A stretch of DNA of 24,000 bases from Owariibacterium komagatae (GTDB lineage: Bacteria; Bacillota; Clostridia; Oscillospirales; Ruminococcaceae), in NCBI RefSeq assembly GCF_045865535.1, contig NZ_AP031406.1, forward strand, positions 234,134-258,133, in the 5' to 3' direction. Shown here one piece after another: positions 2,264 through 21,256 of the stretch; within the stretch, counting starts at the first letter, position 1, and each line of letters opens with the position of its first letter. The position numbers and the translations under genes were made by a program. The notes under the pieces were generated by a model that had not been told where the DNA came from, made no database searches, and saw nothing but the letters and a program-made list of their open reading frames with translations.

Positions 2264-2289
2264 GCCCGCGAACTTTGGAGGATTTTGCC

Positions 2290-3384
2290 GTGAAAAATTT
2301 CGAGTATAAAACCATTCTCTGTACGCCGGAAATGGCGACGGAAATGTTGACGCACAATATTCGTAACAGGTCCATCAATAAGTCGGACGTGAAACGAATC
2401 GCCGAACGAATCCAGAGCGGCCAGTGGGAATTCGATGGCTCTCCCATCAAATTCAACTCTGACGGGATTCTGGTAGACGGCCAGCATCGTCTGGCTGCTA
2501 TTGTGAAGGCCGGCATCCCGGTTGAACTCGCTGTGGTCTATGGCGTGGATAGCCAGTGGACGGACACCGGCCGCAAGCGTTCTTCCCGAGATTCCATCTT
2601 TATTAACTACCCGGACCTGGATTGGGTAGACACCAATGCAACGTCCTCGCTGGAATTCCTGAATCAGTTTTGCCCGGAACTCCAGTGCGCAGAGCATCCC
2701 GAGAAAGCAGCGTTTTTCCGGCAACATGCAGAAAAACTTCGAGACATCCTGCCGAAGCTGTGCAAGACGCGGGGCGTGACCGGTTCCATGCGCTGCGCCG
2801 GATTCCGGGCAGCGTTTATGGTGGCCGCTATGGACGACGTGCCCATGAGCGTACTGGACAGAGCCCTGCATATCCTGTTCAGCGGGGCTGGGGACGGTGG
2901 CGTAGACCACACCATTGACTATCTGCGTGAGAATCTGCGCAAGATGGATGGTTCTTATAAAAAGAAGAGCTTTCCTGTGAACCGGGAGATTTTTCTGAAA
3001 AGCTGCTATGCTCTCAAGAAGTTTTCGGAAGGGGTGGAGCTCAGCTCGGCCCGGACGCCCAATGAGTGCCCATTCTATATCTACAATGCCTACGGCGAGC
3101 CTGTCTATACACCTTCCAAGAAGCGCCAGAGAAAACCGACCGCTTCTGTACGCACGACGCTGAACGGTCAGCTGGAGCTTCCTGAACTGAAGCGGGAAAA
3201 GAAACCGCACGACAACCTTGTTGTGGGAAGTATCATCCAGCACCGCTCTTTTGGGCGCGGCGTTGTGACGAGCACGAGCCTGACGAGCCGGGGCGGAGAA
3301 GTGGTGAATGTTCGATTCCCCGATAAAGACTGCACCATTGGCGTAAAATACTGCCTGGAGCACGGTATCATCCAAATTTTGTAA
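2290..3384 (+). CDS. ParB N-terminal-domain-like (DGQHR motif) protein with a UvrD/PcrA-type C-terminal Tudor-like domain
   Basis: ILVDGQHRLAAIVKAGIPVELAVVYGVD is typical of ParB/Srx-fold proteins. I prefer GTG 2290 because GGAGG at 2277-2281 lies 8 nt upstream; the track start at 2275 is a TTG overlapping that SD. The C-terminus VVGSIIQHRSFGRGVV...VRFPDKDCTIGVKYCLEHG parallels the helicase C-terminus. Confidence 0.7.
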   Translation: MKNFEYKTILCTPEMATEMLTHNIRNRSINKSDVKRIAERIQSGQWEFDGSPIKFNSDGILVDGQHRLAAIVKAGIPVELAVVYGVDSQWTDTGRKRSSRDSIFINYPDLDWVDTNATSSLEFLNQFCPELQCAEHPEKAAFFRQHAEKLRDILPKLCKTRGVTGSMRCAGFRAAFMVAAMDDVPMSVLDRALHILFSGAGDGGVDHTIDYLRENLRKMDGSYKKKSFPVNREIFLKSCYALKKFSEGVELSSARTPNECPFYIYNAYGEPVYTPSKKRQRKPTASVRTTLNGQLELPELKREKKPHDNLVVGSIIQHRSFGRGVVTSTSLTSRGGEVVNVRFPDKDCTIGVKYCLEHGIIQIL

Positions 3385-3420: not shown

Positions 3421-4806
3421 TTGATTGAAGAATCTGTTGTCCAGGGCGTTGAAATCGCCATCCCGTCTCCCGCTCAGTGGGTGCTGGACAAATTGAACGG
3501 CGCCGGACATTCAGCCTATGTGGTCGGTGGATGCGTCCGCGATTCTCTTCTCGGCCTTGAGCCGCATGATTGGGACATCTGCACTTCCGCCCGGCCTGAG
3601 CAGGTCATTGATGTGTTCGGTGCAGAACGGGTTATCCCGACCGGCCTGAAGCACGGGACTGTAACCGTGCGGGAGAATGGAGAATCATTCGAGGTCACGA
3701 CGTTCCGTGTGGATGGCCCTTATTCCGACGGACGGCGGCCTGATTCGGTTCGATTCAGCGACGATTTGATAGAAGACCTGATGCGGCGCGATTTCACGGT
3801 GAATGCAATGGCTTACCATCCGGCTGAAGGACTCATTGACCCGTTTGGTGGTCGGGAAGATATCAAGGGTCGGCTGCTACGATGTGTAGGCGACGCATAT
3901 GCTCGCTTCTCCGAGGATGCTCTGCGAATTCTCCGGGCTGTTCGATTCAGTGCAGTGTACGGATTTCGCATTGGGTCATATACTCGGTACGCCATGGCGA
4001 CTGAGGCAAGAATGTTAGGCGGAATCGCAAAAGAGCGCGTGGGAGCAGAGGTCAGAAAGCTGCTGGCAGGCCGGTATGCAGCTGTGGTTGTACGGGAAAA
4101 CATAGCCGTATTGAACGTCATCATCCCATATTTGCAGGACATCCTGAACTGCTCCCAGAACAACAGCTATCACTACGCCAATGTATTCGAACACACGATG
4201 GATGCTATGGCGGCATCGTGGAGGGAAGAGGTGTTCCCCGCCGAGTGGGCGGACGAATATGCTCGGGCGGCTTTGTTTTTCCATGATTTTGGGAAAGCGG
4301 CCGTGAAGACATGCGATGAGCAGGGATATGAACACTTTTATGGACACCCAAAAGTCAGCGCTGAACGAGTTGACGAAATCTTGCGTGGCCTGCGAATGCC
4401 GAACGAGTACCGGCGCGCGGTCGTTCAGCTCGTAGAGAATCACGATGCGACCCTGTACCCGTCTTTGCCATCCGCCCGCCGATGGCTCCTGCGTTTAGGC
4501 GAAGAACAGCTGCGGCGGTTGATGAAGATGCAGGAATGTGACGCGGCCGCTCATGTGGCATCTGTTCACAAAAAGCGATTTGCGGACCTGAAAACTTTTT
4601 CGGATTGCGTGGATATGGTTCTCACTGAAGCATCTGCATTCTCGCTGAAGCAACTGGCGATTTCAGGGAAAGACCTCTTGACAATCGGATATACGCAGGG
4701 ACCGGAAATCGGAAAAACTCTGCGCAGTTTGCTGGAAGATGTCGTTGAGGGGAAATTAAAGAACGAGAAAGAGGCGCTGCTGAGTGCGGCCGCCGGAATG
4801 AGGTAA
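3421..4806 (+). CDS. cca: CCA-adding tRNA nucleotidyltransferase (class II, with HD domain)
   Basis: GGCVRDSLLG..HDWDI, GLKHGTVTV, EVTTFR.DG.Y.DGRRPD and RRDFTVNAM are the pol-beta nucleotidyltransferase head and neck motifs of CCA enzymes. FFHDFGKA is the HD motif. The C-terminal tail is as in Firmicutes Cca. The start is TTG. Confidence 0.85.
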   Translation: MIEESVVQGVEIAIPSPAQWVLDKLNGAGHSAYVVGGCVRDSLLGLEPHDWDICTSARPEQVIDVFGAERVIPTGLKHGTVTVRENGESFEVTTFRVDGPYSDGRRPDSVRFSDDLIEDLMRRDFTVNAMAYHPAEGLIDPFGGREDIKGRLLRCVGDAYARFSEDALRILRAVRFSAVYGFRIGSYTRYAMATEARMLGGIAKERVGAEVRKLLAGRYAAVVVRENIAVLNVIIPYLQDILNCSQNNSYHYANVFEHTMDAMAASWREEVFPAEWADEYARAALFFHDFGKAAVKTCDEQGYEHFYGHPKVSAERVDEILRGLRMPNEYRRAVVQLVENHDATLYPSLPSARRWLLRLGEEQLRRLMKMQECDAAAHVASVHKKRFADLKTFSDCVDMVLTEASAFSLKQLAISGKDLLTIGYTQGPEIGKTLRSLLEDVVEGKLKNEKEALLSAAAGMR

Positions 4807-4811
4807 TTTCA

Positions 4812-5045
4812 ATGGCAGAAGAAAGAAAAAAGCGCTATCGCCGTTGGTATGCAACCGACGGCAAAACTGTGTATGTATGTTTGTCTCCCCGCGTTCGGGA
4901 CGAATTCCTCGCTCGCAATGCTGGGATGCGTCCTTTGTATAAAAGAGAGGTCGGCCGGATGGTTCGTTCAGACCAGCAAGCAAAAATCGTTGGCATTCGC
5001 GCCAATTTCAGTCATTGGGACCCGATTGACGGTGTGGATTACTAA
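4812..5045 (+). CDS. hypothetical small basic protein (77 aa) immediately upstream of cas5c
   Basis: ATG lies 8 nt after GAGG (4800-4803), and the ORF fills the gap between cca and cas5c. I recognise no motif. It occupies the slot where cas3 sits in canonical I-C loci. Confidence 0.45.
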   Translation: MAEERKKRYRRWYATDGKTVYVCLSPRVRDEFLARNAGMRPLYKREVGRMVRSDQQAKIVGIRANFSHWDPIDGVDY

Positions 5046-5067
5046 CTTTCCAAAAAGGAGCGAAACA

Positions 5068-5811
5068 ATGGTAATCAGATTCGAAACGGAAAGAATCCTG
5101 GATATTGCCAGGATGATTGACCGAAGCGCAGGAGCGCCCAAAATGTATTCCGACCTTGTTGGCGTGGAGTTTTCCGCAGATTACGCGCTGTTTTCCCGAC
5201 CGGAGTTTCAGGTGGACAAAGGTTCGTATCCTGCGCCTACTTTCGCTGCACTGCGAAATGCCATTCAGAGCATTTACTGGCATCCGGGGTTCAATATCAT
5301 CCCTCTTGCCTGTCTGTGTCGAAATCCTGTTGTGGAAGAGAATATCGCCACCAACGGACTTAACATTCGCAAAAAAGCCGAAGTGGGCACATATGTATAT
5401 GCCGGTCTGAACCGTATGCAGCGGACTCAGCGTTTTTTGCGAAACGTCAAGTACGATGTTGTGGTCGCACTGGTGAGTCGGCCTGATGCGATGCCGGGTG
5501 ATAAATGTCTGAAAAGCTACTATGAACAGCTGACCCGGCATATCCATGATGGGACCAGCTACCGGGCCCCGTATCTGGGAGTGGGTGAGTGTCTGGCTTC
5601 GTTTCGTCCTGTCGATTTCAGCAAATTGGATATTAGCGACGGGAACGGCATGACTCGGGATATCGGTTGGATGGCCTTCGACTACGATTATACGCAGATG
5701 AATCGTGGTGAAGCCAAAGGCCCTATCGCCATGTTCCAAAAGACTCGAATTGAACAGGGTCTGATTGATTATACGAAAGGAGAAATCCGACGTGATTCGA
5801 GCGCTCCTTGA
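5068..5811 (+). CDS. cas5c: Cas5c (Cas5d), type I-C
   Basis: VGVEFSADYALFSRPEF....SYPAPTFAALRNAIQSIYWHPGF matches the Cas5d N-terminal signature (F.DYALF..P....SY.vPT..A..G....IYWKP). ATG 5068 has AAAGGAG 7 nt upstream. An alternative start at ATG 5143 (AGGAG at 5130-5134) would give a canonical-length N-terminus. Confidence 0.85.
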   Translation: MVIRFETERILDIARMIDRSAGAPKMYSDLVGVEFSADYALFSRPEFQVDKGSYPAPTFAALRNAIQSIYWHPGFNIIPLACLCRNPVVEENIATNGLNIRKKAEVGTYVYAGLNRMQRTQRFLRNVKYDVVVALVSRPDAMPGDKCLKSYYEQLTRHIHDGTSYRAPYLGVGECLASFRPVDFSKLDISDGNGMTRDIGWMAFDYDYTQMNRGEAKGPIAMFQKTRIEQGLIDYTKGEIRRDSSAP

Positions 5812-7594
5812 TTTTTATGAGTATCTGCTTGATACCGGACTGGTCGAGGAACAGTTCGGTTGGGCAGAAATGGCTGTGCCTATGACCCTCGATGTGGATT
5901 CGGAAGGCAAGGTTCTTTCTCTCAAGTCCAATGTGTATACCGAGAAGAACGAGAAGGGGAAAGAGCAGCAAATCGTTCCTCGGATGCTTCTGCCTTATCA
6001 CCCTGTACGGTCGAACAACATCCTGCCCTGTATTTTTGCGGATAAGGCGGAATACCTGCTGGGCATCGGCCCACGCGGAAACAAGGCATTCGCTGCCATG
6101 AAGAGTCTCCAAGAAAAACTTTTGGAAGACGTGGATTCTCCCGTCGCCAAAGGAATCCTTCGATTTTTTGGAACGTGGGACCTTTCTTCGGCGTCTGATA
6201 AATTTTCCGAATCCCAAAAGGAGTTGCTTGCAGAATATGCAACCGGCAACATCCTTATTACAGTGAACGGCGTGCCCCCTACCGAAGACCGGGCCTGTGT
6301 ATCTGCTTACAATGCCTATATTAAGGAAGTGGGCATCAGCGGCAGCACACTTCACGGCATTGATTGTATCACAGGAGAGTACGGGACGATTTGTCGTGTT
6401 CATCCGAAAATCAAAGGTATTCGGGCGGCATCCACCGGGGCTCCTCTGTGTACCATCAATAACAATTCCTGTGTACACGCCACTGGCAGGGAACAGGGGT
6501 ACGGCACACCGATGACCGAGCTGAATGTGTACCGGTATTCGACTGCGCTGGAGTATCTGACCCACAGCCCGCTTCACAATTTTTATGATAAGTATTCCGG
6601 CATGAACATCCTGTGCTGGTCTACGGAATGCGACGAGGCGCAACAGGCCGCGCTGCTGTTCGCCATGACCGGCGCACTGGGCAAGGACGAATCCGGAAAT
6701 CGGACGACCGAATATCTGAAACGGATTTACATGGGGCTCGATATTCCGCCGGAAGGCTTCAACCCCAATGCCTATATGCATATCGTTGGGCTTGATTCCC
6801 GGGATGGGTACATTATTCGAACTGTGTTCTGCTATGAAGGTTCGTTTCAGGAGCTGACAGAGAATATTCGCCGTCACTACTGGAACACACGCATCTGCGG
6901 CAGAGGCGGTGTCCCGTTCTATCGTATCTACGAAATGATTTGTAAAAAGAAAGCTGACGGCGGTGTGATTGCCGATAAGAGCAGGATTACCGCCGACATC
7001 ATCAACAGCATCATGACGAACGGGAAGTACCCCGAGCAAATCCTGGACCTGCTCCTCCGGCAGATTCAAAATGAGGCGCAGGGAACAGAGGACTATTTGC
7101 TGAACGCTTCGCAGGCTGGGTTCTTGCGGGCGTATCTGATACAGAATAAAAAGGAGAGTGTTACAGAAATGTTGGACACAGAAAACCGTGACCCTGGGTA
7201 TCTCTGCGGACGAATTTTCGCCGCCGCCGTGAATATCGAACGGGCATCGAAAGCCGGAGAACAGACCCGGCGGACTATGGCGCAGAAGCTGGGTGAGGCG
7301 ATGCGGCATCCTGCGGATTTCTTTCCGCTGATGTTTGCTGACCTGAATGGTGCGTACCTGCGGAAGCTGTACACCAGAGAAAAAACCGCCGGGCTTGCAT
7401 CCATTCTCGAAAAAGAGCTTGGCGAACTGGTGGACCTGCTCCCCAATGGAGGGTATCCCCGGAAGCTGTCCCGCGCTCAGCAGGCACAGTTCTGCACCGG
7501 GTACTACCAGCAGAGGAATAAGTACATCCAGGATGCGGCCGCAAAGAAGGCCGAAAAGGAAAAGAAGAACGAAAACAATGAGGAGGCTGCATAA
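5792..7594 (+). CDS. cas8c: Cas8c (Csd1), type I-C large subunit
   Basis: It lies between cas5c and cas7c and is ~600 aa. The N-terminus VIRALLDFYEYL resembles the Csd1 N-terminus, and the C-terminal YLCGRIFAAAVNIE block is Csd1-like. GTG 5792 has AAGGAG at 5777-5782. The gene overlaps the cas5c end by 20 nt. Confidence 0.85.
   Translation: MIRALLDFYEYLLDTGLVEEQFGWAEMAVPMTLDVDSEGKVLSLKSNVYTEKNEKGKEQQIVPRMLLPYHPVRSNNILPCIFADKAEYLLGIGPRGNKAFAAMKSLQEKLLEDVDSPVAKGILRFFGTWDLSSASDKFSESQKELLAEYATGNILITVNGVPPTEDRACVSAYNAYIKEVGISGSTLHGIDCITGEYGTICRVHPKIKGIRAASTGAPLCTINNNSCVHATGREQGYGTPMTELNVYRYSTALEYLTHSPLHNFYDKYSGMNILCWSTECDEAQQAALLFAMTGALGKDESGNRTTEYLKRIYMGLDIPPEGFNPNAYMHIVGLDSRDGYIIRTVFCYEGSFQELTENIRRHYWNTRICGRGGVPFYRIYEMICKKKADGGVIADKSRITADIINSIMTNGKYPEQILDLLLRQIQNEAQGTEDYLLNASQAGFLRAYLIQNKKESVTEMLDTENRDPGYLCGRIFAAAVNIERASKAGEQTRRTMAQKLGEAMRHPADFFPLMFADLNGAYLRKLYTREKTAGLASILEKELGELVDLLPNGGYPRKLSRAQQAQFCTGYYQQRNKYIQDAAAKKAEKEKKNENNEEAA
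7169..7594 (+). CDS. cas11c: possible internally translated Cas11c (small subunit) within the cas8c 3' end
   Basis: In-frame ATG 7169 follows AAGGAG (7151-7156) by 12 nt. The product is 141 aa and begins MLDTENRDPGYLCGRIF. Type I-C systems are known to make Cas11 from an internal start in cas8c. The position fits, but translation is not shown by sequence alone. Confidence 0.4.
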   Translation: MLDTENRDPGYLCGRIFAAAVNIERASKAGEQTRRTMAQKLGEAMRHPADFFPLMFADLNGAYLRKLYTREKTAGLASILEKELGELVDLLPNGGYPRKLSRAQQAQFCTGYYQQRNKYIQDAAAKKAEKEKKNENNEEAA

Positions 7595-8517: not shown

Positions 8518-8686
8518 ATCGCACCTTATGCGGGTGCGCGAATTGAAATCCGGACGTGAAAGCGCATATCATTGTTTGAGATGTCGCGCCCTGTATGGGC
8601 GCGGGAATCGAAATGTCCCGATGGGTCTGTCGATTAGGCGCATCTTGGTATAAAATCGGACCCCACGCAGGTGCGTGAATCAAAAT
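8518..8686 (+). CRISPR. degenerate 3-repeat mini-array abutting the cas7c stop codon
   Basis: Repeats are at 8518-8549, 8583-8614 and 8655-8686 (ATCGCACCTTATGCGGGTGCGCGAATTGAAAT, GTCGCGCCCTGTATGGGCGCGGGAATCGAAAT, ATCGGACCCCACGCAGGTGCGTGAATCAAAAT). Spacers are 33 and 40 nt. The array starts 4 nt after the cas7c TGA (8512-8514), with no leader. Confidence 0.7.
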
Positions 8687-8849
8687 ATAATCATCACCAC
8701 CTTAGTTCTGAGTGCGAAGGGACAGCGAACCGAAAAGCGCTGGTCTCTTCGCACTTATCTTGACTTGTGTCAATGCAATCCAAAAGTAAAATCGTGTTGT
8801 CAAAACATACATGTTGTGCTTTGAGTTGTCGGGTTGCGCGATATATGGA
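8687..8849 (+). promoter_or_regulatory. putative leader of the main CRISPR array, containing a repeat remnant
   Basis: This 163-nt non-repeat segment lies between the mini-array and the first main repeat. It is relatively AT-rich near 8760-8825. Its 3' end (8827-8849, GTCGGGTTGCGCGATATATGGA) looks like a repeat with an internal deletion. Repeat decay at the far end of the array (10266-10608) supports this end being leader-proximal. I could not place a well-spaced sigma-70 promoter. Confidence 0.45.
8711..8755 (+). terminator. hairpin, possible terminator or processing structure between mini-array and leader
   Basis: AGTGCGAAG (8711-8719) and CTTCGCACT (8747-8755) are perfect 9-nt inverted repeats. 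There is further imperfect pairing inside (GACAGCG/CGCTGGTC), followed by TATCTT. The U-tract is weak. Confidence 0.3.
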
Positions 8850-10608
8850 GTCGCACCCTGCACGGGTGCGCGAATCAAAACGCCTATATGGCACCAGAAA
8901 CACATCGTAGACATCGGGTCGCACCCTGCACGGGTGCGCGAATCAAAACGCGCCAAGCTGACCTGTAACACGCAAGTAGTCGCGCCCACACGGGTGCGTG
9001 AATCGAAATATACCATTCGCCGCTGGTGTCTTTGTCGCACCTCACGCGGGTGCGCGAATCAAAACAATACTTTCTTCTTTCTGGCTGCTACTGGAATACG
9101 TCGCACTCTGCACGGGTGCGCGAATCGAAATATAGACCCCGCAATTACCCCGGCTTTCCCGGAGAAGGCCGCACCCTTCGCGGGTGCGCGAATAGAAACC
9201 AGCAGAGCTCGTGTTAGGCGCGGATGATTTGGGTCGCACCCTACGCGGGTGCGCGAATCGAAATGCAACCAAGGACGGGGCAGAGGTCAAGGGTTACAGG
9301 TCGCACCTTACGCGGGTGCGTGAATCAAAACTTAGCGATAGGAGGCTTGACAACAGCGTCGCACCCCACTTGGGTGCGCGAATCGAAATCCGAACCCGTC
9401 CCGTAGAAGAAAGCGGCCCGGAATGTCGCACCCTGCGCGGGTGCGCGAATCAAAACCGAAAAAGAGCCATCTGCGTATGATACGTCCCGGGTCGCACCCT
9501 GTACGGGTGCGCGAATCGAAATTTGGCAAATGCGATTATCTTGGCAATCCAAATGTCGCACCTCACGCGGGTGCGCGAATCGAAATCCAACCGCGCACAT
9601 CGAAAAAGCATACGGAAGTGTCGCACCCTGCACGGGTGCGCGAATCGAAATGTGGCAAATGCGATTATCTTGGCAATCCAAATGTCGTACCTCACGCGGA
9701 TGCGCGAATCGAAATGACTCAAAATCACAAGCCAGCCGACAGCCCATCCGTCGCACCTCACGCGGGTGCGCGAATCGAAATTGGACAACGGCGCTGCCGC
9801 AGATATCCCCGCCATGTCGCACCCTGCGCGGGTGCGCGAATCGAAATGACACTCCCACATTTCAAACTGTTGAGTATGAGGGTCGCACCTCACGCGGGTG
9901 CGTGAATCAAAATTATTGCCGGAGAATGAATTTTCCGCAATACCGCCGCGTCGCACCCTTCGCGAGTGCGCGAATCGAAATAGTAACACTCGCCCCGAAA
10001 AGTAGTTATACTTGACGTCGCACCTCACACGGGTACGTGAATCAAAACACGCCAAGCTGACCTGTAACACGCAAGTAGTCGCGCCCACACGGGTGCGCGA
10101 ATCGAAATGCCCTGCGCCAGAAAACGCAAAGGGCTTACTACCGTCGCACCCTGCGCGGGTGCGCGAATCGAAATCTGGCAAATGCGATTATCTTGGCAAT
10201 CCAAATGTCGCACCTCACGCGGGTGCGAGAATCGAAATCACCATAAAAATGCCTCTGTGGCAAAAATCGCACCCAAACATGGGTGTGGGAATTGAAATCC
10301 CGGAAAGTAGGTTATAATAGCTCCTCTGGTCTTAGCGCACCTCACACGAGTGCGCGGTGCGCGAATCGAAATACAACCATACCGCAGCATATGTTGGTGC
10401 CGTACTGCATCGCACCCCACACGGGTGCGCAAATCGAAATAAATGGAAATACACTGGAACGATGTGAGAAAATCTGTCCTTTGCGACATGATTTGTCCAC
10501 CATAGCAGTCGCGCCCACATGGGTGCGCGAATTAAAATGATGTTGCGGCAGTTTTCATCATGGAGACATTCCAGGTCGCCCCCTGTACGGGTGCGTGAAA
10601 CTAAAAAT
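8850..10608 (+). CRISPR. type I-C CRISPR array, 27 repeats and 26 spacers
   Basis: The consensus repeat GTCGCACCCTGCACGGGTGCGCGAATCGAAAT (32 nt) has the orientation and hairpin of canonical I-C repeats (GTCGC...ATTGAAAT/C). Repeat starts: 8850, 8918, 8979, 9034, 9100, 9168, 9233, 9300, 9358, 9425, 9491, 9555, 9620, 9684, 9750, 9816, 9882, 9950, 10017, 10078, 10143, 10207, 10266, 10335, 10408, 10508, 10575. Spacers are 24-36 nt plus one of 68 nt. The last five repeats are degenerate (33, 38, 32, 31 and 34 nt). Confidence 0.95.
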
Positions 10609-10645
10609 AAAGTAAGAAATCAAGCCGCTGCGCCCTCTTTTCTTT

Positions 10646-10665
10646 CCCCGAAAAGTGCATACAAT
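10646..10665 (+). promoter_or_regulatory. promoter-like motif CCCCGAAAA-N5-TACAAT upstream of the 520-aa secreted protein gene
   Basis: CCCCGAAAAGTGCATACAAT lies 107 nt upstream of ATG 10772. The same architecture occurs at 18002-18022 and 23614-23636 and inside two spacers. Function is untested. Confidence 0.4.
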
Positions 10666-10771: not shown

Positions 10772-12334
10772 ATGAAGAATTTCAAACGCGCCGTGTCGTG
10801 CGCAATGGCTGTGGCTATGGCTCTGAGCTGCGCCGCCGTCCCCGCCTTCGCGGCCGAGGACATGACTGAGCCCAATCCGGTTATCGAGGCTCACCCTGAT
10901 GATGGTATGAGCCCCACCAAGGTCGTTACCCCCATCGGCCAGAAGACCTTCTACAAAATCAGCGGCGACCGCGTGATTTACACCGACCGTGATGATGGCA
11001 CCGGCTGGGAGGCCGTTCCGTCTCAGTACATCAAGGACAGTGAGTACAACGTGGGCAACGTTGATTACGGCATTTATGCGACTTCCGATGGCGAAGTGCA
11101 TTTCGTTGCCCTGAGCGACTGCCACGACGAAGGCGATGGTACTTACACTTGGTATCACGGCACTTCCGACAGCGCCACCGTATCCGAGGACGTGGATAAG
11201 GCCACCAACACCGACCCCACTATGGGGACTCAGTTCTACCTGAACATCGAGAACGGTATCGACCCCGACGGCACCACCGAAGAGGATAAGGTGGAGGCCG
11301 GCACCGCCGATGAGCGCGTGGACTACGAAATCACGGTGGGCACCAAAACCACCTATCAGCTGAACGCCACTGTCCCCATGTACGTGTGTATGTATGGCTT
11401 TCGAGGAACCGGCAACGTCGTGACCCCTGATTCCGACGCTTACCGGCTGAAGAACATGTCCACCATCAACCGGGCCTCCAGCGCTTCCATTCTGGACATC
11501 GTGAAAGTCACCCATATGGCGAAGATTTACGATGAGAACCACAGCGACGAGACCCTGTACTCCATCGCTTACGATGAGGAGACCGGTTCCTACACCTACT
11601 GGTACAGCAACCCCGCATTCACCGCTACCGGCGAGCCCAATGTGAATTGGCAGGAGCCGGAGAACTATCTGGTCATCGAAGATAAGAACATCAACGCTTC
11701 CGGCGAGTGCTACGTTATCTTCATCGACGGCGAATGGACCTTCAAGGCTGCCGGCGTTCTGGACGACGATGCGTTCCGCGAAACTGTGGACGCCATCGAC
11801 CCGAGCCATCCTCTGAGTGAGGACTTCATCCACAACGGCTTCAACTTCGGCAAAGAGTTCAGCGTTGGTGCTGTTTCCAACGAAAGCGAGCAGTCTGTGG
11901 ACGAGGGCCTGGCCCTGAAAGTTACCGAGCTCCAGGCTGAGCCCGCTACCTGGCGCCTGAAGCCCGTAAGCACCAGTGTTTCCGCTTTGAAGCGCGGTGA
12001 GCTGGCAATGAGCATCGCCCCCAAGACCGCTATCTCCAATGCTTCCGCTATCGACCTGTCTCAGTGCAGCGGCAAAATGGACATCACCGAGAACGGCTGG
12101 TTCCTGGATGCCCCCAAGACTGTTGAGAAAGACGGTTCTGTGAAACCCGAGAACGCCACCACCCTTCCCGTAATCACCAAGGCTCAGATGGCCGGCGGTA
12201 ACGTTAACGATGCTGGCTGCACCAGTGTTGTTAAGGTGAACTACACTCTGACCCCGGTGTTCCAGACTGGCGACGGCGAGACTTCTACCGATATTGGCAA
12301 CGTTGTGGAAAGCAACCGCGAAGTAGCCAAGTAA
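10772..12334 (+). CDS. secreted hypothetical protein (520 aa) with N-terminal signal peptide
   Basis: MKNFKRAVSCAMAVAMALSCAAVPAFA/AED is a signal peptide with an AFA-A cleavage site. The composition is Thr/Asp/Glu/Asn-rich, like extracellular proteins. The overlapping 410-aa minus-strand ORF is V/G/H-rich shadow. Confidence 0.8.
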   Translation: MKNFKRAVSCAMAVAMALSCAAVPAFAAEDMTEPNPVIEAHPDDGMSPTKVVTPIGQKTFYKISGDRVIYTDRDDGTGWEAVPSQYIKDSEYNVGNVDYGIYATSDGEVHFVALSDCHDEGDGTYTWYHGTSDSATVSEDVDKATNTDPTMGTQFYLNIENGIDPDGTTEEDKVEAGTADERVDYEITVGTKTTYQLNATVPMYVCMYGFRGTGNVVTPDSDAYRLKNMSTINRASSASILDIVKVTHMAKIYDENHSDETLYSIAYDEETGSYTYWYSNPAFTATGEPNVNWQEPENYLVIEDKNINASGECYVIFIDGEWTFKAAGVLDDDAFRETVDAIDPSHPLSEDFIHNGFNFGKEFSVGAVSNESEQSVDEGLALKVTELQAEPATWRLKPVSTSVSALKRGELAMSIAPKTAISNASAIDLSQCSGKMDITENGWFLDAPKTVEKDGSVKPENATTLPVITKAQMAGGNVNDAGCTSVVKVNYTLTPVFQTGDGETSTDIGNVVESNREVAK

Positions 12335-13140: not shown

Positions 13141-13169
13141 TTTTTCGATGTAGACAGGGGGTGAAAACT

Positions 13170-13523
13170 ATGGCATTGCGAAAAAAACGGCTTGCCGGCA
13201 TCGTCCTTGCGGTCGCACTGACCGTCTCTTGCGCAGTGGTCCCTGCATTTGCAGAAGAACTGCCGATTGACAAAGCGACACCTGACGAGGCTACTGTGTC
13301 GGAAGAGGTGGACCAGGCCACCAACACGGACCCGGAAATCGGGACCCAGTTCTTTATGTACATCCCACCGGATATCGTAGAACAGGATATTCCCAAGATG
13401 GGCGACGAGGGAGTTCCCACTTCCACTCTGGTTCTCGCTGCGCTTGCAACTGGGGCTGGATTCCTCACCGTCTCCAAATACGCTTTTGCGGACCGGCGTG
13501 GACATGCAAAAGCTGTTTCGTAA
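13170..13523 (+). CDS. small secreted protein with a C-terminal cell-wall-sorting-like signal
   Basis: Signal peptide is MALRKKRLAGIVLAVALTVSCAVVPAFA/EE. The C-terminus is IPKMGDEG-VPTSTLVLAALATGAGFLTV-SKYAFADRRGHAK (motif, hydrophobic stretch, basic tail). It shares ATVSEEVDQATNTDPEIGTQF with the 520-aa protein. ATG 13170 is 8 nt after GGGGG; the track start at 13161 is a GTG. Confidence 0.65.
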   Translation: MALRKKRLAGIVLAVALTVSCAVVPAFAEELPIDKATPDEATVSEEVDQATNTDPEIGTQFFMYIPPDIVEQDIPKMGDEGVPTSTLVLAALATGAGFLTVSKYAFADRRGHAKAVS

Positions 13524-14340
13524 CGTATGCAGAGTCCTCAGCGTTTTTCTGCTCATTGTGTTCCTCGGTTTCAGTGCGGCAGCCGGGACAAGGCTCTATG
13601 ATACATGGAAAACGCGCCACACAGTAAACCAGCTGTCGGAACTTCGGTTGATGGCCCAGGAAGAAAAGGACTGGTCAAAGGGCATGCTCGCCATCAATCC
13701 GGACTACGTCGGCTGGCTTACTGTATATGGAACAACAGCGGATGGGCCTGTGGTACAGGGCGAAGATAATAACGAATATCTTCGAACCAATATCTACGGA
13801 GAACACGCTACGGCTGGGACATTGTTTATGGATTCCATCGTGAATATGGACTCTGGCGGCAATTTGATTATCTATGGACATCATATGCGGGACGACACTA
13901 TGTTTGGTGAATTCGATAAGTACCGCAATAAGGAGTTCATGGAGGAAAACAATATTGTTCGGTGGGAGGACAAGACCGGAACACACATTTTCCGCCTGTT
14001 TGGCGCGATGATTATTTCCGGCTCATCCACGGACACGGATTATGTCAATCTCCAGCAATGGGCAAATAAGCCTGGGGCGCAAGAGACCCGTTCGATGCTG
14101 CAAATTTTAAAAGAGAAGTGCTTTCTTTATCAAGATGATTTGTTTCGGGACCCGAACGGACGGTATCTTTTCCTCGTTACCTGTGACGAACGTTTTTGGA
14201 ACGGACGAATCGTTCTAATCGGCGAAGAACTGGACGGTGACAGCACCACCCTCGTCCCCAAAGATACCGCCAGAGATACCGAAACACATGAGACAACCCA
14301 GTCTTCTCAACCCTCTGAGTCCGCCGAGAAAGCAAAATAA
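13504..14340 (+). CDS. srtB: class B sortase
   Basis: An N-terminal TM anchor is followed by INPDYVGWL...GTTADGPVVQG.DN.EYL, IIYGHHMRDDTMFG (catalytic His), LFLVTCDE (TLxTC-like catalytic Cys) and NGRIVL (Arg). ATG 13504 overlaps the previous gene by 20 nt. Confidence 0.85.
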   Translation: MQKLFRNVCRVLSVFLLIVFLGFSAAAGTRLYDTWKTRHTVNQLSELRLMAQEEKDWSKGMLAINPDYVGWLTVYGTTADGPVVQGEDNNEYLRTNIYGEHATAGTLFMDSIVNMDSGGNLIIYGHHMRDDTMFGEFDKYRNKEFMEENNIVRWEDKTGTHIFRLFGAMIISGSSTDTDYVNLQQWANKPGAQETRSMLQILKEKCFLYQDDLFRDPNGRYLFLVTCDERFWNGRIVLIGEELDGDSTTLVPKDTARDTETHETTQSSQPSESAEKAK

Positions 14341-14356
14341 TTGAAAACATAAAACG

Positions 14357-14399
14357 ACGGCCTCAGCTTTCGCTGGGGCCGTTGCTGGGGCCGTTTCTT
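14357..14399 (+). terminator. rho-independent terminator after srtB
   Basis: ACGGCCTCAGC (14357-14367) pairs with GCTGGGGCCGT (14372-14382) as an 11-bp stem with one G-U pair and a TTTC loop. A tandem second copy of GCTGGGGCCGT is followed by TTCTT. Confidence 0.55.
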
Positions 14400-14430
14400 A
14401 AAACGAAAGGTTAGGTTTTATTGTCAATAA

Positions 14431-14450
14431 CCCACGACTGAAGTCGCGGG
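14431..14450 (+). repeat. left subterminal hairpin CCCACGACTGAAGTCGCGGG
   Basis: It is identical to 16006-16025. The stem is CCCACGAC/GTCGCGGG (one A-C mismatch) with a TGAA loop. Confidence 0.75.
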
Positions 14451-14727
14451 CTTGTCGAATGCGGTGAGCCCAAGGCTTCTGGCGTGCCCGAAAGGGTGTG
14501 TTGACTACCCTGTGCGCGTTAAGTCGCGCCCCGTTGTAAGCGAATGTATAGGCACCGGTGGACGTTAATCCTAATCTGCTGCTCTGCGGCAGCACATCAT
14601 GGAGGCCGAGGTAAGCCGACAGGTGTGTTGTGAAAACCGTTTGCAACTTTGGGGAAGGATTCCAACTCTCCGCAAGGAGAGGGTGGCTTCTTTTTAGCCG
14701 CCAAATTTTGAGAAGGAGTATGGCATC
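14431..14727 (+). ncRNA. putative IscB omega-RNA scaffold; the guide would lie just 5' of it
   Basis: This ~300-nt GC-rich non-coding stretch lies directly upstream of and co-oriented with iscB, and runs into its RBS (GAAGGAG 14712-14718). IscB omega RNAs are known to be encoded in this position. The exact ends cannot be determined by eye. Confidence 0.5.
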
Positions 14728-15993
14728 ATGCAATATGTGTATGTCCTTAATATGCACGGCGAGCCTTTGATGCCGTGTTCCCCACGGAAGGCTCGCTTGC
14801 TTTTGAAAGAAGGAAAGGCTCGCGTTGTAAAACGCACGCCGTTCGCAATCAAACTTCTGCACGGAAGTGCGGGATACAAGCAACCCGTTGTCCTGGGCGT
14901 GGATGCAGGCTCCAAGCATGTGGGACTTTCTGCCTGTACTGAAAGCAGGGAACTCTACAAAGAAGAGCTGACACCCCGCAACGATGTGGTGGAGTTGCTC
15001 TCGGCGAGGCGGCAATACCGCCGTAGCCGTCGGAACCGCAAAACCAGATACAGGGCACCGCGTTTCAACAACCGGGTACACAGCAAGCACAAAGGCTGGC
15101 TGGCGCCGTCGGTGGAAGTCAAAATCCAGGAACACACCACCGTCATCAAGCGCGTTTGCAGGATTCTTCCCATCGTGCTGGTGCGTGTGGAAACCGCCGA
15201 ATTTGACACCCAGCGGCTAAAAGCCATGCTGGAAGGCAAGCCTCTGCCAGTGGGCAAAGACTACCAGCTCGGCGAGATGTACGACGAATACAATGTGCGC
15301 CAGTATGTCCTGAAACGGGACAGATACACTTGTCAGCACTGCGGCGCACATCCGACGTCTGAAAAAACGATTCGTTTGCATGTTCATCATCTGGAGAGCC
15401 GGAAAACCGGCGGGAACGCTCCCAACAATCTGATTGTCCTGTGCGAGCATTGCCACAAGGCACTGCACAAAGGGAAAATCAAACTGCGAAAGGGTAAAAA
15501 GCGCGGCAAGCCGTTGCGTGACGCTGCCTTCATGGGCATCATGCGCAACACGCTGCTGGCCCGCCTGTGGGATGAGCTGAACGTCCCCGTCGAACAGACC
15601 TACGGGTACATCACCAAGCTGTTGCGGGAGAAGAACAAAATTCCGAAAAGTCATGTGAACGATGCTCGCTGTATTGCCGGATTCCCAACCGCAGAGTCAT
15701 GCGATACGATGTTCCGCACGCGGGCACTCCGCCACCACAACCGGCAAATCCACAAGGCAAAAATCCTTAAAGGCGGCATCCGCAAAAAGAACCAGGCCCC
15801 GTACCTGGTGAAGGGATTCCGCCTCTGGGACAAGGTCCGGTATAACAGCGAAGAGTGCTTCATTACCGGCAGGCGTTCAAGCGGGTACTTTGCCCTTAAA
15901 AAGCACGACGGAACCGCTGTCTCAAACAGCGCGAGCTACAAAAAACTGACGCTGCTGGAGGCAGCGACAAATTATATCACAGAGAGGAGTTGA
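14728..15993 (+). CDS. iscB: IscB RNA-guided nuclease (PLMP, split RuvC, bridge helix, HNH), 421 aa
   Basis: Motifs seen: PLMP domain NMHGEPLMPCSPRKARLLLKEGKA; RuvC-I VLGVDAGSKHVG; Arg-rich bridge helix RRQYRRSRRNRKTRYRAPRF; RuvC-II VRVETAEFD; HNH CQHCG...HVHHLESRKTGGNAPNNLIVLCEHCHKALH; RuvC-III SHVNDARCIA. Confidence 0.85.
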   Translation: MQYVYVLNMHGEPLMPCSPRKARLLLKEGKARVVKRTPFAIKLLHGSAGYKQPVVLGVDAGSKHVGLSACTESRELYKEELTPRNDVVELLSARRQYRRSRRNRKTRYRAPRFNNRVHSKHKGWLAPSVEVKIQEHTTVIKRVCRILPIVLVRVETAEFDTQRLKAMLEGKPLPVGKDYQLGEMYDEYNVRQYVLKRDRYTCQHCGAHPTSEKTIRLHVHHLESRKTGGNAPNNLIVLCEHCHKALHKGKIKLRKGKKRGKPLRDAAFMGIMRNTLLARLWDELNVPVEQTYGYITKLLREKNKIPKSHVNDARCIAGFPTAESCDTMFRTRALRHHNRQIHKAKILKGGIRKKNQAPYLVKGFRLWDKVRYNSEECFITGRRSSGYFALKKHDGTAVSNSASYKKLTLLEAATNYITERS

Positions 15994-16005
15994 AGGCGCA
16001 TTCCT

Positions 16006-16025
16006 CCCACGACTGAAGTCGCGGG
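16006..16025 (+). repeat. right subterminal hairpin CCCACGACTGAAGTCGCGGG
   Basis: Identical copy of 14431-14450, lying 13 nt after the iscB stop codon. Confidence 0.75.
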
Positions 16026-16042
16026 TCTCCTGCGCCAAATTT

Positions 16043-17546: not shown

Positions 17547-17995
17547 AAAAGTTTGTGTCGTGGTTTAACGGTTTGCCCCGAAAAACTCAGGCCATATCTG
17601 GATTCATCGTCATCCTGGCCCTCTGCGGACTATCTATTGGGACGGCGATTTTGCAAATCCAGCGGACGAAAAACGACGAATATCCTCCTGCGCCCGCTAT
17701 CTCGCAAAGTGCCGATTCGGAACAGTTCGTTCCGACGCCAGAGAGTGCCGCGAATGCTGATGAGAGCCAACACTTTGAGTCGGCTCTGTCCGAAACTGCT
17801 GTGCCGGATGGAATCGAAGACCGAATGGCCGAATGGTTGGCCGAAGCGGATGAGCCAAACGACCTGATGGAAAACGAGGATTTTGTGGACTTTATGCTAA
17901 ATGACGTCGGTATGTCTGAAGAGGAGCTGCGGGAGAATATAGCCGAAGCGCAGTCCGAGGTCGAAGCTGCCCGGGCAGAAGCTGCGAAGAGCTAA
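17543..17995 (+). CDS. hypothetical membrane-anchored acidic protein (150 aa)
   Basis: The GTG start overlaps the preceding stop (GTGTGA). TM helix AISGFIVILALCGLSIGTAIL is followed by an acidic E/D/A-rich tail. Confidence 0.6.
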   Translation: MKKFVSWFNGLPRKTQAISGFIVILALCGLSIGTAILQIQRTKNDEYPPAPAISQSADSEQFVPTPESAANADESQHFESALSETAVPDGIEDRMAEWLAEADEPNDLMENEDFVDFMLNDVGMSEEELRENIAEAQSEVEAARAEAAKS

Positions 17996-18001
17996 CGCTC
18001 G

Positions 18002-18022
18002 CCCCGAAAAACAGGGTATAAT
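18002..18022 (+). promoter_or_regulatory. promoter-like motif CCCCGAAAA-N6-TATAAT
   Basis: CCCCGAAAAACAGGGTATAAT has a perfect -10 hexamer. It lies 7 nt after the upstream stop codon and 98 nt before the kinase ATG. Confidence 0.4.
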
Positions 18023-18040
18023 GTCATCATCAAAGAATCA

Positions 18041-18089
18041 AATGCGGATGCTGTGTCACGAAAGTGGTGCGCATCCGCATTTTTCTTTG
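18041..18089 (+). terminator. long-stem rho-independent terminator or attenuator
   Basis: AATGCGGATGC (18041-18051) and GCATCCGCATT (18071-18081) form a perfect 11-bp stem. It extends through wobble pairs to a CAC-GAAA-GTG tip and is followed by TTTTCTTT. Confidence 0.55.
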
Positions 18090-18119
18090 AAAGTACATAA
18101 TTTTAGGAGGATTTGTAAA

Positions 18120-18563: not shown

Positions 18564-18837
18564 GATTGGGCCCATTAACTTTACGTGTGGTTAATCCCTC
18601 GGACGGTTAAGGGGCGCAGGCAAGGATACCCGCCATCTGTGCGTTGGTCGCATGGATGGCAGGTACTCCAAAAGCGGACGTTCATGCTGCGGTCTCCGCA
18701 GCGAGCACTGCGGTGGTTATCCCAGCTCCGCACGAGTCTTCGGACTCATACTGCTTAGTGAACGTCCAGCCAGGGGAAACATCACCCGTGACGGGAGCAA
18801 TCCCGGACGCGGAGTCTTAACGAAAGGAGTGGCTCAC
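18564..18837 (+). ncRNA. putative omega-RNA of the second IscB
   Basis: This 274-nt GC-rich non-coding region lies directly upstream of and co-oriented with the second iscB, with many local stems (e.g. ATTAAC...GTTAAT at ~18575-18596, GCGGTCTCCGC near 18689). It has no sequence similarity to the first omega region. The ORF-track extension from 18652 has no RBS. Confidence 0.45.
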
Positions 18838-20307
18838 ATGGCCGCAGTATATGTGTTATCGAAAGCTGGTAAACCTTTGATGCCCACGACCCGCTGCGGC
18901 CATGTGCGCCATCTTCTCAAACAGAAGAAAGCGAAGGTCGTGGCAACAAAGCCGTTTACCATCCAACTGCTGTATGAATGCCCCGAAGAAAAGCAGCCTC
19001 TGGTCCTGGGTATCGACCCCGGGCGCACGAACATCGGCGTCGCTGTTGTCAAAGAGGACGGCGAACCTGTGTTTAGCGCCGAGGTCAGAACTCGGAATAA
19101 GGAAATCCCGAAGCTGATGACAAGCCGCAGGGCGTTCCGGCAGGCACACCGCCGCCTGGGCCGCCGCAAGGTTCGTCAGCGCAGGGCAAAGAAAGCTGGG
19201 ACGGTTATTCCCGGCGGCTCCATCAAGCGAGTTCTGCCCGGATGTGAGGAACCCATCGAGTGCAAGCTCATCCGTAATAAAGAAGTGCGGTTCAACAACC
19301 GCAAACGTCCCGCTGGATGGCTGACTCCGACGGCGAATCAGCTGCTGCTGACCCATCTGAACGTTGTGAAGAAAATCCAGAAGTTCATTCCCCTCAGCGA
19401 CGTTGTTCTGGAGTTGAACAAATTTGCCTTCATGGCAATAGACAATCCGAACATCAGGCGCTGGGAATACCAAAAGGGGTCGCTTCATGGCTTTAGCTCG
19501 GTGGAGGATGTGGTATTCCGCTTACAAGAGGGTCATTGCATCTTCTGCAAAAAGCCCATCGCGCATTATCACCATGTCGTGCCCGTCAGCAAAGGTGGTT
19601 CCAACACGCTGGAAAACCGTGTAGGCGTGTGTAAAAAACATCATGGGCTCGTGCATACGGACGCCGCATGGCGCGAAAAACTCACCAGAAAGAAAGCCGG
19701 CGCCAACAAAAAGTATCATGCGCTGAGTGTGTTGAACCAAATCATCCCTCGTCTGGAGCGCGAGTTGGCAACGGCCTTCCCCGGGCACTGTTTCGTGACC
19801 GAAGGCCAAAGCACGAAAGCGTTCCGCGATGCCAATGGCGTGGAGAAAACGCACCACAGCGATGCGTACTGCATTGCATGCTCGATTTTGCCGACGGCGA
19901 AGGTCTCTGTCCCTGAACAGATGTTTGAGATTCGACAGTTCCGACGCCACGACCGGCAGGCTGTCCATCAGGCTATGCTCGACAGGAAATATTACCTCGA
20001 CGGCAAACTGGTGGCGAAAAACCGGCACAAGGCTACCGAGCAATTTTCCGATAGCCTGGAAGAATTTGTCGCCAAAGGCGGCGACGTTTCCCAGCTCGTC
20101 GTGAAGGAGCATAAGCCCGTCTACAAGCGGCAGGACCGCTGGATGCCGGGCAGCATTATTTTGTTCGACGGTACAGTCGGTGTACTGGACCATTCAGCGG
20201 GCTTTCATAACGGCAAAGTTGATTATTACTTTGATACAAAAGGAAACCGCTCCCATTCAAATAAGTGTATCTTGCTGGCTCGCTCCACAGGTCTTGTGGT
20301 GGTGTGA
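18838..20307 (+). CDS. iscB: IscB RNA-guided nuclease, second divergent copy (489 aa)
   Basis: ATG 18838 is 8 nt after AAAGGAG. Motifs seen: [32 protein letters not shown]; Ruv[18 protein letters not shown]; bridge helix [23 protein letters not shown]; Ruv[11 protein letters not shown]; [43 protein letters not shown]; Ruv[13 protein letters not shown]. Confidence 0.85.
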
Positions 20308-20359
20308 ATCGCAAAAAACACACAGAAAGTTTGGAAGCCCTGAATTAGGAGGAAAAGTT

Positions 20360-20852: not shown

Positions 20853-21242
20853 ATGGAAAAAGTAAAGCCTTGTACGGCTCAGTACGACCGCACGGTTTAC
20901 AGTTCGTTTCGCACCAGGGATATTTTGACCCGGGGTTTTGATGAAATCCAAATCCTGCTTCGATATCTGTATATGAACGAAGACCATGCCATCATTTTCG
21001 ATAACGGCCTCTGTAAACTTGAAATCAAAATGACGCCCAGTATGGATTTAACGGCGCGTAATCTGAATTTTCCCGATTTCCCCGCGACTCATCGGCCGAT
21101 TGAACTGCCGGAACTTTTGGGAATCATCGAGCAGCTGGAAGAAACTCCGGCGGTCGAATACCCCGACAGTTTCGCGAATCGTTGGGAAGAAGTGAAAACC
21201 ATCTGTGCAAGCACGATGGTCCAGAACTATATCAAAAAATAA
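20853..21242 (+). CDS. hypothetical protein (129 aa)
   Basis: The ATG is preceded by a weak SD (AAAGGA, 20838-20843), and the ORF fills the gap up to ligA. I recognise no motif. Confidence 0.5.
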   Translation: MEKVKPCTAQYDRTVYSSFRTRDILTRGFDEIQILLRYLYMNEDHAIIFDNGLCKLEIKMTPSMDLTARNLNFPDFPATHRPIELPELLGIIEQLEETPAVEYPDSFANRWEEVKTICASTMVQNYIKK

Positions 21243-21256
21243 CGGAGGAAACAGCT

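Follow-up and report, generated by a model that had tools for sequence, protein, structure and literature searches.

We describe here a Cascade (CRISPR-associated complex for antiviral defence) locus and its CRISPR array, which lie in a stretch of 24,000 nt of Owariibacterium komagatae (contig NZ_AP031406.1, positions 234,134 to 258,133); this whole stretch is referred to below as the window. Two spacers of the array, S1 and S2, resemble promoters that stand before genes of the same element. The positions of all features are collected in Table 1. Related loci are labelled L001–L148, of which L011 and L143 are sibling strains.

The genes cas5c, cas8c (csd1) and cas7 are consecutive in that order and no cas6 accompanies them, a gene content that assigns the locus to type I-C. 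Canonical type I-C systems (D. vulgaris / B. halodurans) share the Cas5c-Cas8c-Cas7 order, a 32-nt I-C-type repeat and spacers of 33–36 nt, whereas the window is without cas3, cas4, cas1 and cas2, and its Cas8c is only 22–26% identical to canonical plasmid-borne type I-C Cas8c proteins, that of D. vulgaris included. Homologues at 65–99% identity are 598–605 aa long, and the protein appears to form a deep branch, whose protospacer adjacent motif (PAM) may differ from TTC. A protein identical to the window Cas7 is not on record. No gene for Cas3 or an HD-helicase, and no cas4, cas1 or cas2, was found among the open reading frames (ORFs) of the window; the same four genes were missing within 10 kb of the Cascade genes in L001, L003, L005, L006, L008, L011 and L013. 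As far as can be seen over this span, the complex is both nuclease-free and adaptation-free, and the nuclease-free Cascade of which the first-pass annotation had spoken is borne out.

Table 1. Features of the CRISPR locus and of the predicted promoter family in the window.
Feature	Position	Strand	Remarks
cas5c, 247 aa	5068..5811	+	Pfam Cas_Cas5d on ORF 4849-5811; start placed by 247-aa homologues in L001-L008
cas8c/csd1, 600 aa, divergent clade	5792..7594	+	Pfam Cas_Csd1, E = 1.2e-80
cas7, 305 aa	7597..8514	+	Pfam Cas_Cas7, E = 6.9e-74
Mini-array, probably decaying: three degenerate repeats and two spacers, between cas7 stop codon and leader	8518..8686	+	
CRISPR leader, 163 nt	8687..8849	+	ends ...GATATATGGA directly at first repeat
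Type I-C-like CRISPR array	8850..10606	+	32-nt repeat GTCGCACCCTGCGCGGGTGCGCGAATCGAAAT
Spacer S1, AGTAACACTCGCCCCGAAAAGTAGTTATACTTGAC	9982..10016	+	reads as a diverged copy of an I2-type promoter
Degenerate 33-nt repeat 5' of S2	10266..10298	+	conserved in L011, L143, L144
Spacer S2, CCCGGAAAGTAGGTTATAATAGCTCCTCTGGTCTT	10299..10333	+	100% identical in L011, L143, L144
Repeat 3' of S2 with internal 7-nt duplication (GTGCGCG)	10334..10372	+	
Predicted promoter I1, CTTTTC-ttc-CCCGAAAA-gtgca-TACAAT	10637..10665	+	PWM 31.5 bits
520-aa secreted protein, heads surface-protein and sortase cluster	10772..12334	+	signal peptide in translation
Predicted promoter I2, GCTAACGCTCGC-CCCGAAAA-acaggg-TATAAT	17991..18022	+	closest in-window relative of S1 and S2
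I2 leader hairpin, flanking A and U tracts	18029..18090	+	fold -35.9 kcal/mol, z = -6.3; also flagged by terminator scan

The array is built on a 32-nt I-C-type hairpin repeat that ends in AATCGAAAT or AATTGAAAT (...ATTGAAAT/C), with spacers of 33–36 nt. Its type agrees with that of published I-C repeats, and its orientation follows from these and from the position of the leader. Many repeats are degenerate; one spacer is present in three copies and another in two. The leader is conserved in L001/L011 and has a diverged form in L003. The mini-array upstream of it is probably a decaying remnant, and less probably a regulatory mini-array; in L011 both of its spacers are shortened, to 20 and 18 nt, and the structure is missing in L003. 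S1 and S2 are 35-nt units bounded by repeats on both sides, and S1 in L011 has near-consensus repeats on either side. The first-pass annotation had placed S1 correctly, while its second spacer has to be shortened by one base, from 10299–10334 to 10299–10333.

S1 contains a TAA in alignment with the end of the gene upstream of I2 (its stop codon), the box CCCCGAAAA and a TATACT -10, and is conserved at L011:13322-13356 with one substitution. S2 opens exactly on the box CCCG, followed by N6 and TATAAT. Both spacers share with the predicted promoters I1 and I2 the module TTGnnn-N3-CCCGAAAA-N5/6-TAnAAT. The first 24 bases of S1 equal I2 at 19 positions and the first 20 bases of S2, in the same register, at 16, values that were reached in 0/200 shuffles each. 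The S1–I2 similarity includes a run, TAAC[A/G]CTCGCCCCGAAAA (TAACgCTCGCCCCGAAAA), that had been overlooked in the first-pass annotation and that matches at 17/18 positions for the window allele and 18/18 for the L011 allele of S1. Over its full length, S1 agrees with I2 at 22–23/35 positions (PAM position AGA) and with the diverged I2 of L142 at 24/35 (PAM position GTG), having in common with the latter the TATACT -10, its register and, in the window allele, TAACACTC; against the promoter at L143:10865, it agrees at 21 of the first 24 (PAM position AAG). S2 agrees at 18/35 with I2 (PAM position CGC), at 15/18 with the same promoter at the end of L143, and at 14–15/35 with I1, where a TTC directly precedes the box and the PAM-proximal bases match at 9/10 (10/11 in L011), with a mismatch at position 5. 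No promoter examined matches S1 or S2 past the shared core, and most are without a TTC PAM. Judged by these alignments, the promoters compared are diverged homologues of the two spacers, and neither spacer is a copy of any of them.

The box CCCGAAAA occurs eight times on the + strand of the window and not at all on the - strand, against 1.67 expected, and the composite CCCGAAAA-N4-9-TANNNT occurs six times against 0.06 expected, a pattern that was picked after the data had been seen. Since the composite was drawn from the data, an independent test was made with a position weight matrix (PWM) trained only on seven instances from other lineages (L003, L008, L017), with a gap of 5 or 6 nt between box and -10. 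Both strands of the window were scanned, with the best score in each shuffled window as the control. The top five sites were I1 at 10647 (31.5 bits), S1 (22.6), I2 at 18003 (19.0), a site before tnpB (13.1) and S2 (12.7), while the best scores of the shuffles had a mean of 12.2, their 95th percentile lying at 16.8 and their maximum at 22.8. I1, S1 and I2, the top three sites and all above the 95th percentile, are clearly members of one family, and the proposed motif thus stands out from shuffled controls in a scan of the window. S2 and the tnpB site score at the level of a typical best shuffle; S2 belongs to the family by its local identity to the promoters, not by its PWM score.

These results bear out the central observation of the first-pass annotation, namely that both spacers carry a promoter-like motif that also precedes window genes (S1 by the PWM, S2 by local identity), and they confirm its sites at 10646–10665 and 18002–18022. 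Other parts of that annotation fell away. The site before tnpB (23614–23636) lies inside a TnpB insertion sequence (IS) that is absent in L011 and L143, is without the fourth C and has an 8-nt spacing. A weak site at 14404–14421 is inside an IscB insertion, likewise absent in both siblings, and is not a resident promoter. Lying inside IS insertions, neither site is counted in the family. The resemblance claimed for spacer 9587–9619 is at chance level: the spacer is without CCCC, and its best window match is no better than those of ordinary spacers.

Related contigs were reached through homologues of Cas8c (65–99% identity), of the kinase encoded downstream of I2 and of the 520-aa protein encoded downstream of I1. 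In these contigs, the box recurs intergenically in the L003/L005, L008/L013, L017, L142 and L143 lineages, loci with a Cas8c at 65–80% identity being among them, and it always stands in sense orientation, 80–140 nt 5' of start codons. The promoter class that had been conjectured is therefore found upstream of genes in at least five lineages. An anchored alignment gave the consensus tTG-N5-C-CCCGAAAA-N5-tAnaaT with a spacer of 16 nt (17 in I2). Most instances have a TTG -35-like element 9 nt 5' of CCCGAAAA, and L017 reads TTGACA-16-GAAAAT; -35- and -10-like hexamers 16–18 nt apart, upstream of a gene, are the arrangement of a sigma-70-type promoter. The box is best read as a conserved element in the spacer region, at roughly -26 to -18, of ordinary predicted sigma-70-type promoters.

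The first-pass annotation was right in saying that the box lies too near the -10 for a normal -35; with the TTG element 5' of it, the box is not an aberrant -35 either. The special sigma factor or RNA polymerase site proposed on that ground is not suggested by this arrangement. A non-palindromic element conserved in many promoters of one element rather suggests an operator for a regulator. KorA and KorB of IncP provide global operator regulons of conjugative plasmids. The family resembles these in having one short conserved element inside many promoters of one element, and differs in that the box is non-palindromic and sits in the -35/-10 spacer region.

I1 sits 31 nt past the last degenerate repeat and 107 nt 5' of the gene for the 520-aa protein. 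It is conserved in L011, L134, L143 and L144, with equivalent post-array promoters in L003, L005, L008 and L013. One family promoter stands right after the array in every box-bearing lineage, the distance from the last repeat to the start of the box being 41 nt in the window, 31 nt in L005, 38 nt in L008 and 9 nt in L013. I2, upstream of the kinase gene, is identical in ten sibling contigs and has a diverged variant in L142. The density of family promoters is about one per 6–7 kb. In a subclass of them (I2, L142, L003:2039, L008:6320 and L013:13743), a conserved ATCAAAGAAT comes next, together with a strong hairpin that has a U tract, and counterparts of the I2 leader hairpin lie at L003:2060-2110, L008:6340-6400 and L142:365-430. 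An I2-type leader of this kind suggests a promoter-proximal terminator or attenuator, and with it regulated antitermination or attenuation.

A solitary CRISPR repeat was also observed about 1 kb 3' of the array, just 5' of a family promoter, at L008:6268-6300 and L013:13709-13741. A compensatory change from CGCACC/GGTGCG to CGCATC/GATGCG preserves its stem. In L013, the loss of approximately 18 nt puts the TTGAAA of the repeat in place of the -35 of the family promoter, with the register unchanged.

The alignments also bear on the origin of the spacers. Since I2 is invariant in ten sibling contigs and the S1 alleles of two strains are one base apart, the approximately 13 mismatches between S1 and I2 cannot stem from drift that followed a capture from I2, and S1 derives from another member of the family. 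At the 5' end of S1, AGTAAC lines up with where the gene before I2 has its stop codon, which makes the source of S1 a true homologue of this junction of gene end and promoter. S2 starts on the first base past the position that holds TTC in I1, L003:2039 and L008:6320, a register that would be expected of capture beside the type I-C PAM, which is TTC (10.1101/2022.06.15.496202). In L003, whose Cas8c is 80% identical, the second, leader-proximal spacer lies between perfect repeats and agrees at 26/34 positions with the post-array promoter of its own locus, with TTT at the PAM position and mismatches at positions 2, 3 and 9. All three box-bearing spacers are in sense orientation and span the -35 to -10 region. 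They are three of approximately 75 non-redundant spacers from box-bearing lineages, where about 0.3 would be expected (Poisson p ~0.004), an estimate of our own that is weak because of the small numbers.

For the protospacer search, 87 non-redundant spacers of all arrays were compared by BLAST with approximately 330 kb of related loci in which the arrays had been masked, and only the box-bearing spacers gave significant matches. A 16-nt match of one L008 spacer in L145 showed no extension and was rejected. The exact S1 and S2 cores had no match in IMG/VR, where the general motif gave 97 single, unclustered matches, consistent with chance. A degenerate combined S1/S2 pattern gave 19 matches in species-representative genomes, about as many as chance would yield, none of them extending past the pattern. 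The whole array had no match in INPHARED phages, and in PLSDB it matched only the repeats of other I-C arrays. The exact protospacers that the first-pass annotation had looked to, in related or unrelated targets, thus did not turn up in the phage and plasmid sets. Three of the chance pattern matches, L118, L122 and L133, come from unrelated bacteria, one member each of the deltaproteobacteria, the Lentisphaeria and the Granulosicoccaceae. They have a common flank, GTGGCCTG(C/T)TGATGCCA-CCCGGAAAGTAGTTATACT, which is a conserved sequence of another sort and has no relation to this element.

Between the window and L011, the flanking DNA is 96–98% identical, while the leader-proximal spacers are wholly different, and the spacers that both have, S1 and S2 included, stand in different orders. 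The block around S2 (10239–10372) is unchanged in L143, L144 and L011 among differing neighbours. Spacer differences at such DNA identity point to recent or ongoing acquisition through adaptation proteins supplied in trans, and the array thus turns over without adaptation genes of its own. The arrays also recombine. S1 and S2 are older units common to the strains; several ordinary spacers are also common to the window and L011, so conservation alone is no proof of selection. The three-copy spacer (9523–9554, 9652–9683 and 10175–10206) and a different spacer of L011 (13389–13426) overlap on TGGCAAATGCGATT. Both encode an ANAI motif, with a 13-nt match in a ParM/Alp-like partition gene at L009 13698-13710, and the pair may reflect repeated targeting of variant partition or plasmid-maintenance genes of rival plasmids.

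The explanation that we favour, tentatively and at somewhat less than an even chance, is that S1 and S2 are genuine spacers that guide the nuclease-free Cascade to homologous promoters of rival elements, which it is predicted to silence. The two spacers would have been captured from members of the promoter family to which the element's own CCCCGAAAA promoters belong, most likely on related competing elements. The conserved leader would drive transcription of the array, Cas5c would cleave the transcript into CRISPR RNAs (crRNAs), and Cascade loaded with S1 or S2 would form an R-loop from -35 to -10 on any promoter that matches fully and that a sibling element brings in. Such an R-loop would block transcription initiation, much like CRISPR interference without cleavage. 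A helicase-free complex would make the best use of promoter-derived spacers, so that such spacers would be kept. The element's own promoters would be spared, as only the family core of approximately 20 nt is common and a TTC PAM is mostly absent. This logic has precedents. Silencing of genes by Cascade without Cas3 has been described (PMC4288158), and a type IV-A3 complex without the DinG helicase represses only when it is aimed at a promoter (10.1101/2023.06.23.546257). Type IV-A3 arrays on conjugative plasmids gain spacers through host Cas1-Cas2, in a setting of inter-plasmid competition (10.1101/2023.06.23.546257; PMC11656645).

Among the three interpretations offered by the first-pass annotation, targeting of a promoter class of related elements is the best fit. 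Several observations weigh against it. For none of the spacers, S1 and S2 included, did an exact or near-exact protospacer turn up in the ~330 kb of related loci, IMG/VR, INPHARED phages, PLSDB or species-representative genomes. About 35 kb is visible of an element of at least 60 kb, so that a perfect promoter match may lie elsewhere on the same element, in which case the spacers would be self-derived. With a Cas8c only 22–26% identical to canonical ones, the PAM may not be TTC, and the S1-homologous sites hold AGA, GTG or AAG at the PAM position. Both spacers belong to the older and degenerate portion of the array, and their retention in siblings may come from shared ancestry only, as several ordinary spacers are shared too.

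The same spacers could instead act on the element itself, with Cascade carrying S2, and perhaps S1, tuning the element's own CCCCGAAAA promoters by seed-only pairing, in the manner of CreR, CreA or tracr-L, and with I1 of the surface-protein/sortase operon as the target. The placement of S2 suits this idea, as it lies between degenerate repeats, like a regulatory mini-array, in a block (10239–10372) kept in four strains while its neighbours vary, and the conserved box falls exactly in its PAM-proximal seed. In I1, TTC stands right before the box and S2 matches at 9/10 positions, or 10/11 in L011; regulatory crRNA-like RNAs pair over approximately 10–11 nt beside a canonical PAM at promoters (PMC10120712). 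The L003 spacer likewise resembles its own post-array promoter. We nevertheless consider self-regulation unlikely. The S2–I1 pairing has a mismatch at seed position 5 and ends after position 10–11, the S1–I2 and L003 pairings combine non-TTC PAMs (AGA, TTT) with mismatches at positions 1–3, and in a system with no Cas3 there is no need for limited complementarity, so that good matching would be expected of a dedicated self-guide. The TTC of the post-array promoter is not conserved either (TAC in L003/L005, CTC in L008/L013), and guide and target are not conserved together beyond the window lineage, as L005, L008 and L013 have the promoter and no box-bearing spacer. Of the self-regulation by partial complementarity that had been suggested, what is left is the partly favourable S2–I1 pairing; conservation across lineages is not seen. 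A broader version, in which Cascade is the element's programmable transcription factor and the seed of an S2-type crRNA reads every TTC-CCCGAAAAGT promoter (I1 and its relatives), seems to us quite doubtful. If it were true, the whole promoter regulon, the surface-protein/sortase transfer operon included, would be under CRISPR control, and the solitary repeats abutting family promoters elsewhere would be parts of the same circuit.

It is somewhat unlikely, in our estimate, that the spacers are passive by-products, captured by host adaptation from self or relatives, harmless without a nuclease and inherited without a selected function. The box, often after TTC, might simply supply a PAM; the array is shuffled and duplicated (one spacer three times, another twice), with S1 and S2 in its older, degenerate part, several ordinary spacers are equally common to the window and L011, and the enrichment estimate is based on three spacers only. 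However, all three are in sense orientation and cover -35 to -10, they are approximately tenfold above expectation by the same estimate, and the L003 spacer, leader-proximal, between perfect repeats and 8 mismatches from its own promoter, argues against self-capture followed by drift. S1 and especially S2 might also serve as internal promoters that fire inside the array and raise distal crRNAs or the downstream operon. This is improbable: the downstream operon already has I1, the arrays of L005, L008 and L013 are without such spacers, and for S2 the 15-nt spacing between the TTGAAA of the upstream repeat (10266–10298) and its TATAAT is short and the PWM gives 12.7 bits, the level of the shuffles. 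S1 is the better candidate, with 22.6 bits and a generic scan that flags GTAACA-18-TATACT, and the L013 case, where the repeat TTGAAA replaces the -35 in register, indicates that repeat-plus-box junctions could act as promoters. The earlier proposal of internal promoters therefore retains the fact that S1 scores as a family promoter, while any such firing would come automatically, as a side effect, with a spacer that derives from a promoter, and does not exclude the other readings. Very improbable is a derivation of S2 (and S1) from former trailer promoters that were made internal by recombinational joining of array segments. S2 does come after a strongly degenerate repeat, as is usual for terminal repeats, the terminal repeat of L013 has the box within 8 nt, and blocks of the window array are rearranged compared with L011; but S1 and S2 are exactly 35 nt each with a repeat after each, S2 past its -10 is unrelated to I1, and S1 in L011 is flanked by near-consensus repeats.

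The remaining genes of the window are also on the + strand. The left end encodes a PcrA/UvrD-like helicase (182–2263), a ParB-like protein (2275–3384, from PHROGs) and a CCA-adding enzyme (3421–4806). The gene for the 520-aa secreted protein, 3' of the array, is followed by those for small membrane/surface proteins and a sortase (13444–14340), and further 3' by IscB (14728–15993), TraX, an AAA_33 kinase and a second IscB-like protein (18652–20307); at the right end, LigA (21182–23551) precedes TnpB, which begins at 23671 and runs onward. Homologues place the true start of the kinase at 18120 and give it a true length of 147 aa. A conserved ORF for a basic protein of 77 aa (4812–5045), called in L001 too, lies between the gene for the CCA-adding enzyme and cas5. 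Just 5' of the sortase gene, a 120-aa ORF (13161–13523; homologues 117 aa) has a signal peptide and, past IPKMGDEG, a C-terminal hydrophobic stretch and a charged tail; its product is possibly a non-canonical sortase substrate or a pilin. Rfam gave no match in the window. Three strain-specific insertions, at 14384–16040 (IscB), 18571–20339 (IscB-like, carrying a 551-aa ORF with RRXRR plus HNH) and from 23576 onward (the TnpB IS), are absent from L011 and L143, a comparison that indicates probable recent IS activity in the window strain.

The homologues of the 520-aa protein fall into more than 140 clusters, and the contigs that carry them reach approximately 220 kb. In L145 and L148, the homologue heads a cluster with Toprim/DUF3991, TrbL-like, VirB4-like and M23 peptidase genes, and the loci also carry genes for TraX, a sortase, a ParB-like protein, a DNA methylase and the HEPN protein pEK499_p136. 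Going by gene content, we take the carrier to be an uncultured extrachromosomal element of conjugative type and large size; the loci examined showed neither a complete element nor a relaxase or replicon. Contigs with homologues at 50–57% identity cluster at 210519, 213929, 219998, 220135 and 222217 nt, which hints at a common complete element size of approximately 220 kb. A search that finds close relatives only returned no close relative of Cas8c from the GTDB one-genome-per-species set or from IMG/VR, and the 520-aa protein is absent from PLSDB. L011 is labelled as human gut metagenome. A phage was considered as the carrier and rejected, as no phage record exceeds 48% identity to LigA, the PHROGs matches are non-structural and the context is like that of a type IV secretion system.

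In its presumed mode of action, the window system appears most like the plasmid-borne type IV-A3 (10.1101/2023.06.23.546257) and type V-M/Cas12m (PMC11656645) systems, and it is a member of neither. The likeness lies in a carrier that looks large and of conjugative type, the lack of a nuclease or adaptation module, an array that varies between close strains, proposed crRNA-guided silencing and promoter targets that are workable without a helicase. Unlike them, the window has a Cas5c-Cas8c-Cas7 effector of type I-C ancestry and no DinG, and for none of its spacers could a plasmid protospacer be demonstrated, the homology being partial and confined to sibling promoters and a ParM-like gene. With CreA/CreTA, CreR mini-arrays and tracr-L (PMC10120712; 10.1101/2023.03.10.532045), the locus shares degenerate repeats flanking a spacer that partly matches a promoter of the same locus, and an S2–I1 pairing of approximately 10 nt beside a TTC PAM. 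In contrast to these, S2 lies inside a long array, the pairing has a seed mismatch and is not conserved across lineages, the target is neither a cas nor a toxin promoter, and there is no nuclease whose self-cleavage has to be avoided.

A sister clade of the Cascade is found in L009 and L010, where it adjoins TnsB, TniB and TniQ, as in type I-C CRISPR-associated transposons (10.1101/2021.08.16.456562); the window differs in having no Tns/TniQ genes, a full-length Cas8c and a long array that turns over. At L009:697-8700 and in L010, genes for TnsB-like, TniB and TniQ proteins lie directly 5' of those for Cas5, a short Cas8c of 359 aa, 75% identical to the window Cas8c over the shared part, and Cas7, and an array of at least 10 repeats (GTCGCAACCCGCATGGACTGTGTGAATTGAAAC) follows. 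By this gene order, the two loci represent a predicted type I-C CRISPR-associated transposon with an array, a class that was described without arrays (Rybarski et al., 10.1101/2021.08.16.456562). In the literature, we came across no account of a type I-C Cascade that is without Cas3 and has, on a conjugative-type element, a long array that turns over; an incomplete I-C system with a Cas8-Cas5 fusion, which may be a DNA binder, is on record (PMC10910872).

Inter-plasmid RNA-guided silencing is established for type IV-A3 and Cas12m, and the silencing of rival promoters proposed here, if true, would extend it to a stripped-down type I-C Cascade. Its carrier would be an abundant uncultured family of large human-gut elements. 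The selective logic would be that a helicase-free complex blocks initiation only, so that promoter-derived guides should be kept. The promoter family is itself testable, and a conserved box in the -35/-10 spacer region implies a regulator. Together with its transposon-associated form, this Cascade clade would offer a natural series for repurposing, from defence through silencing to transposition.

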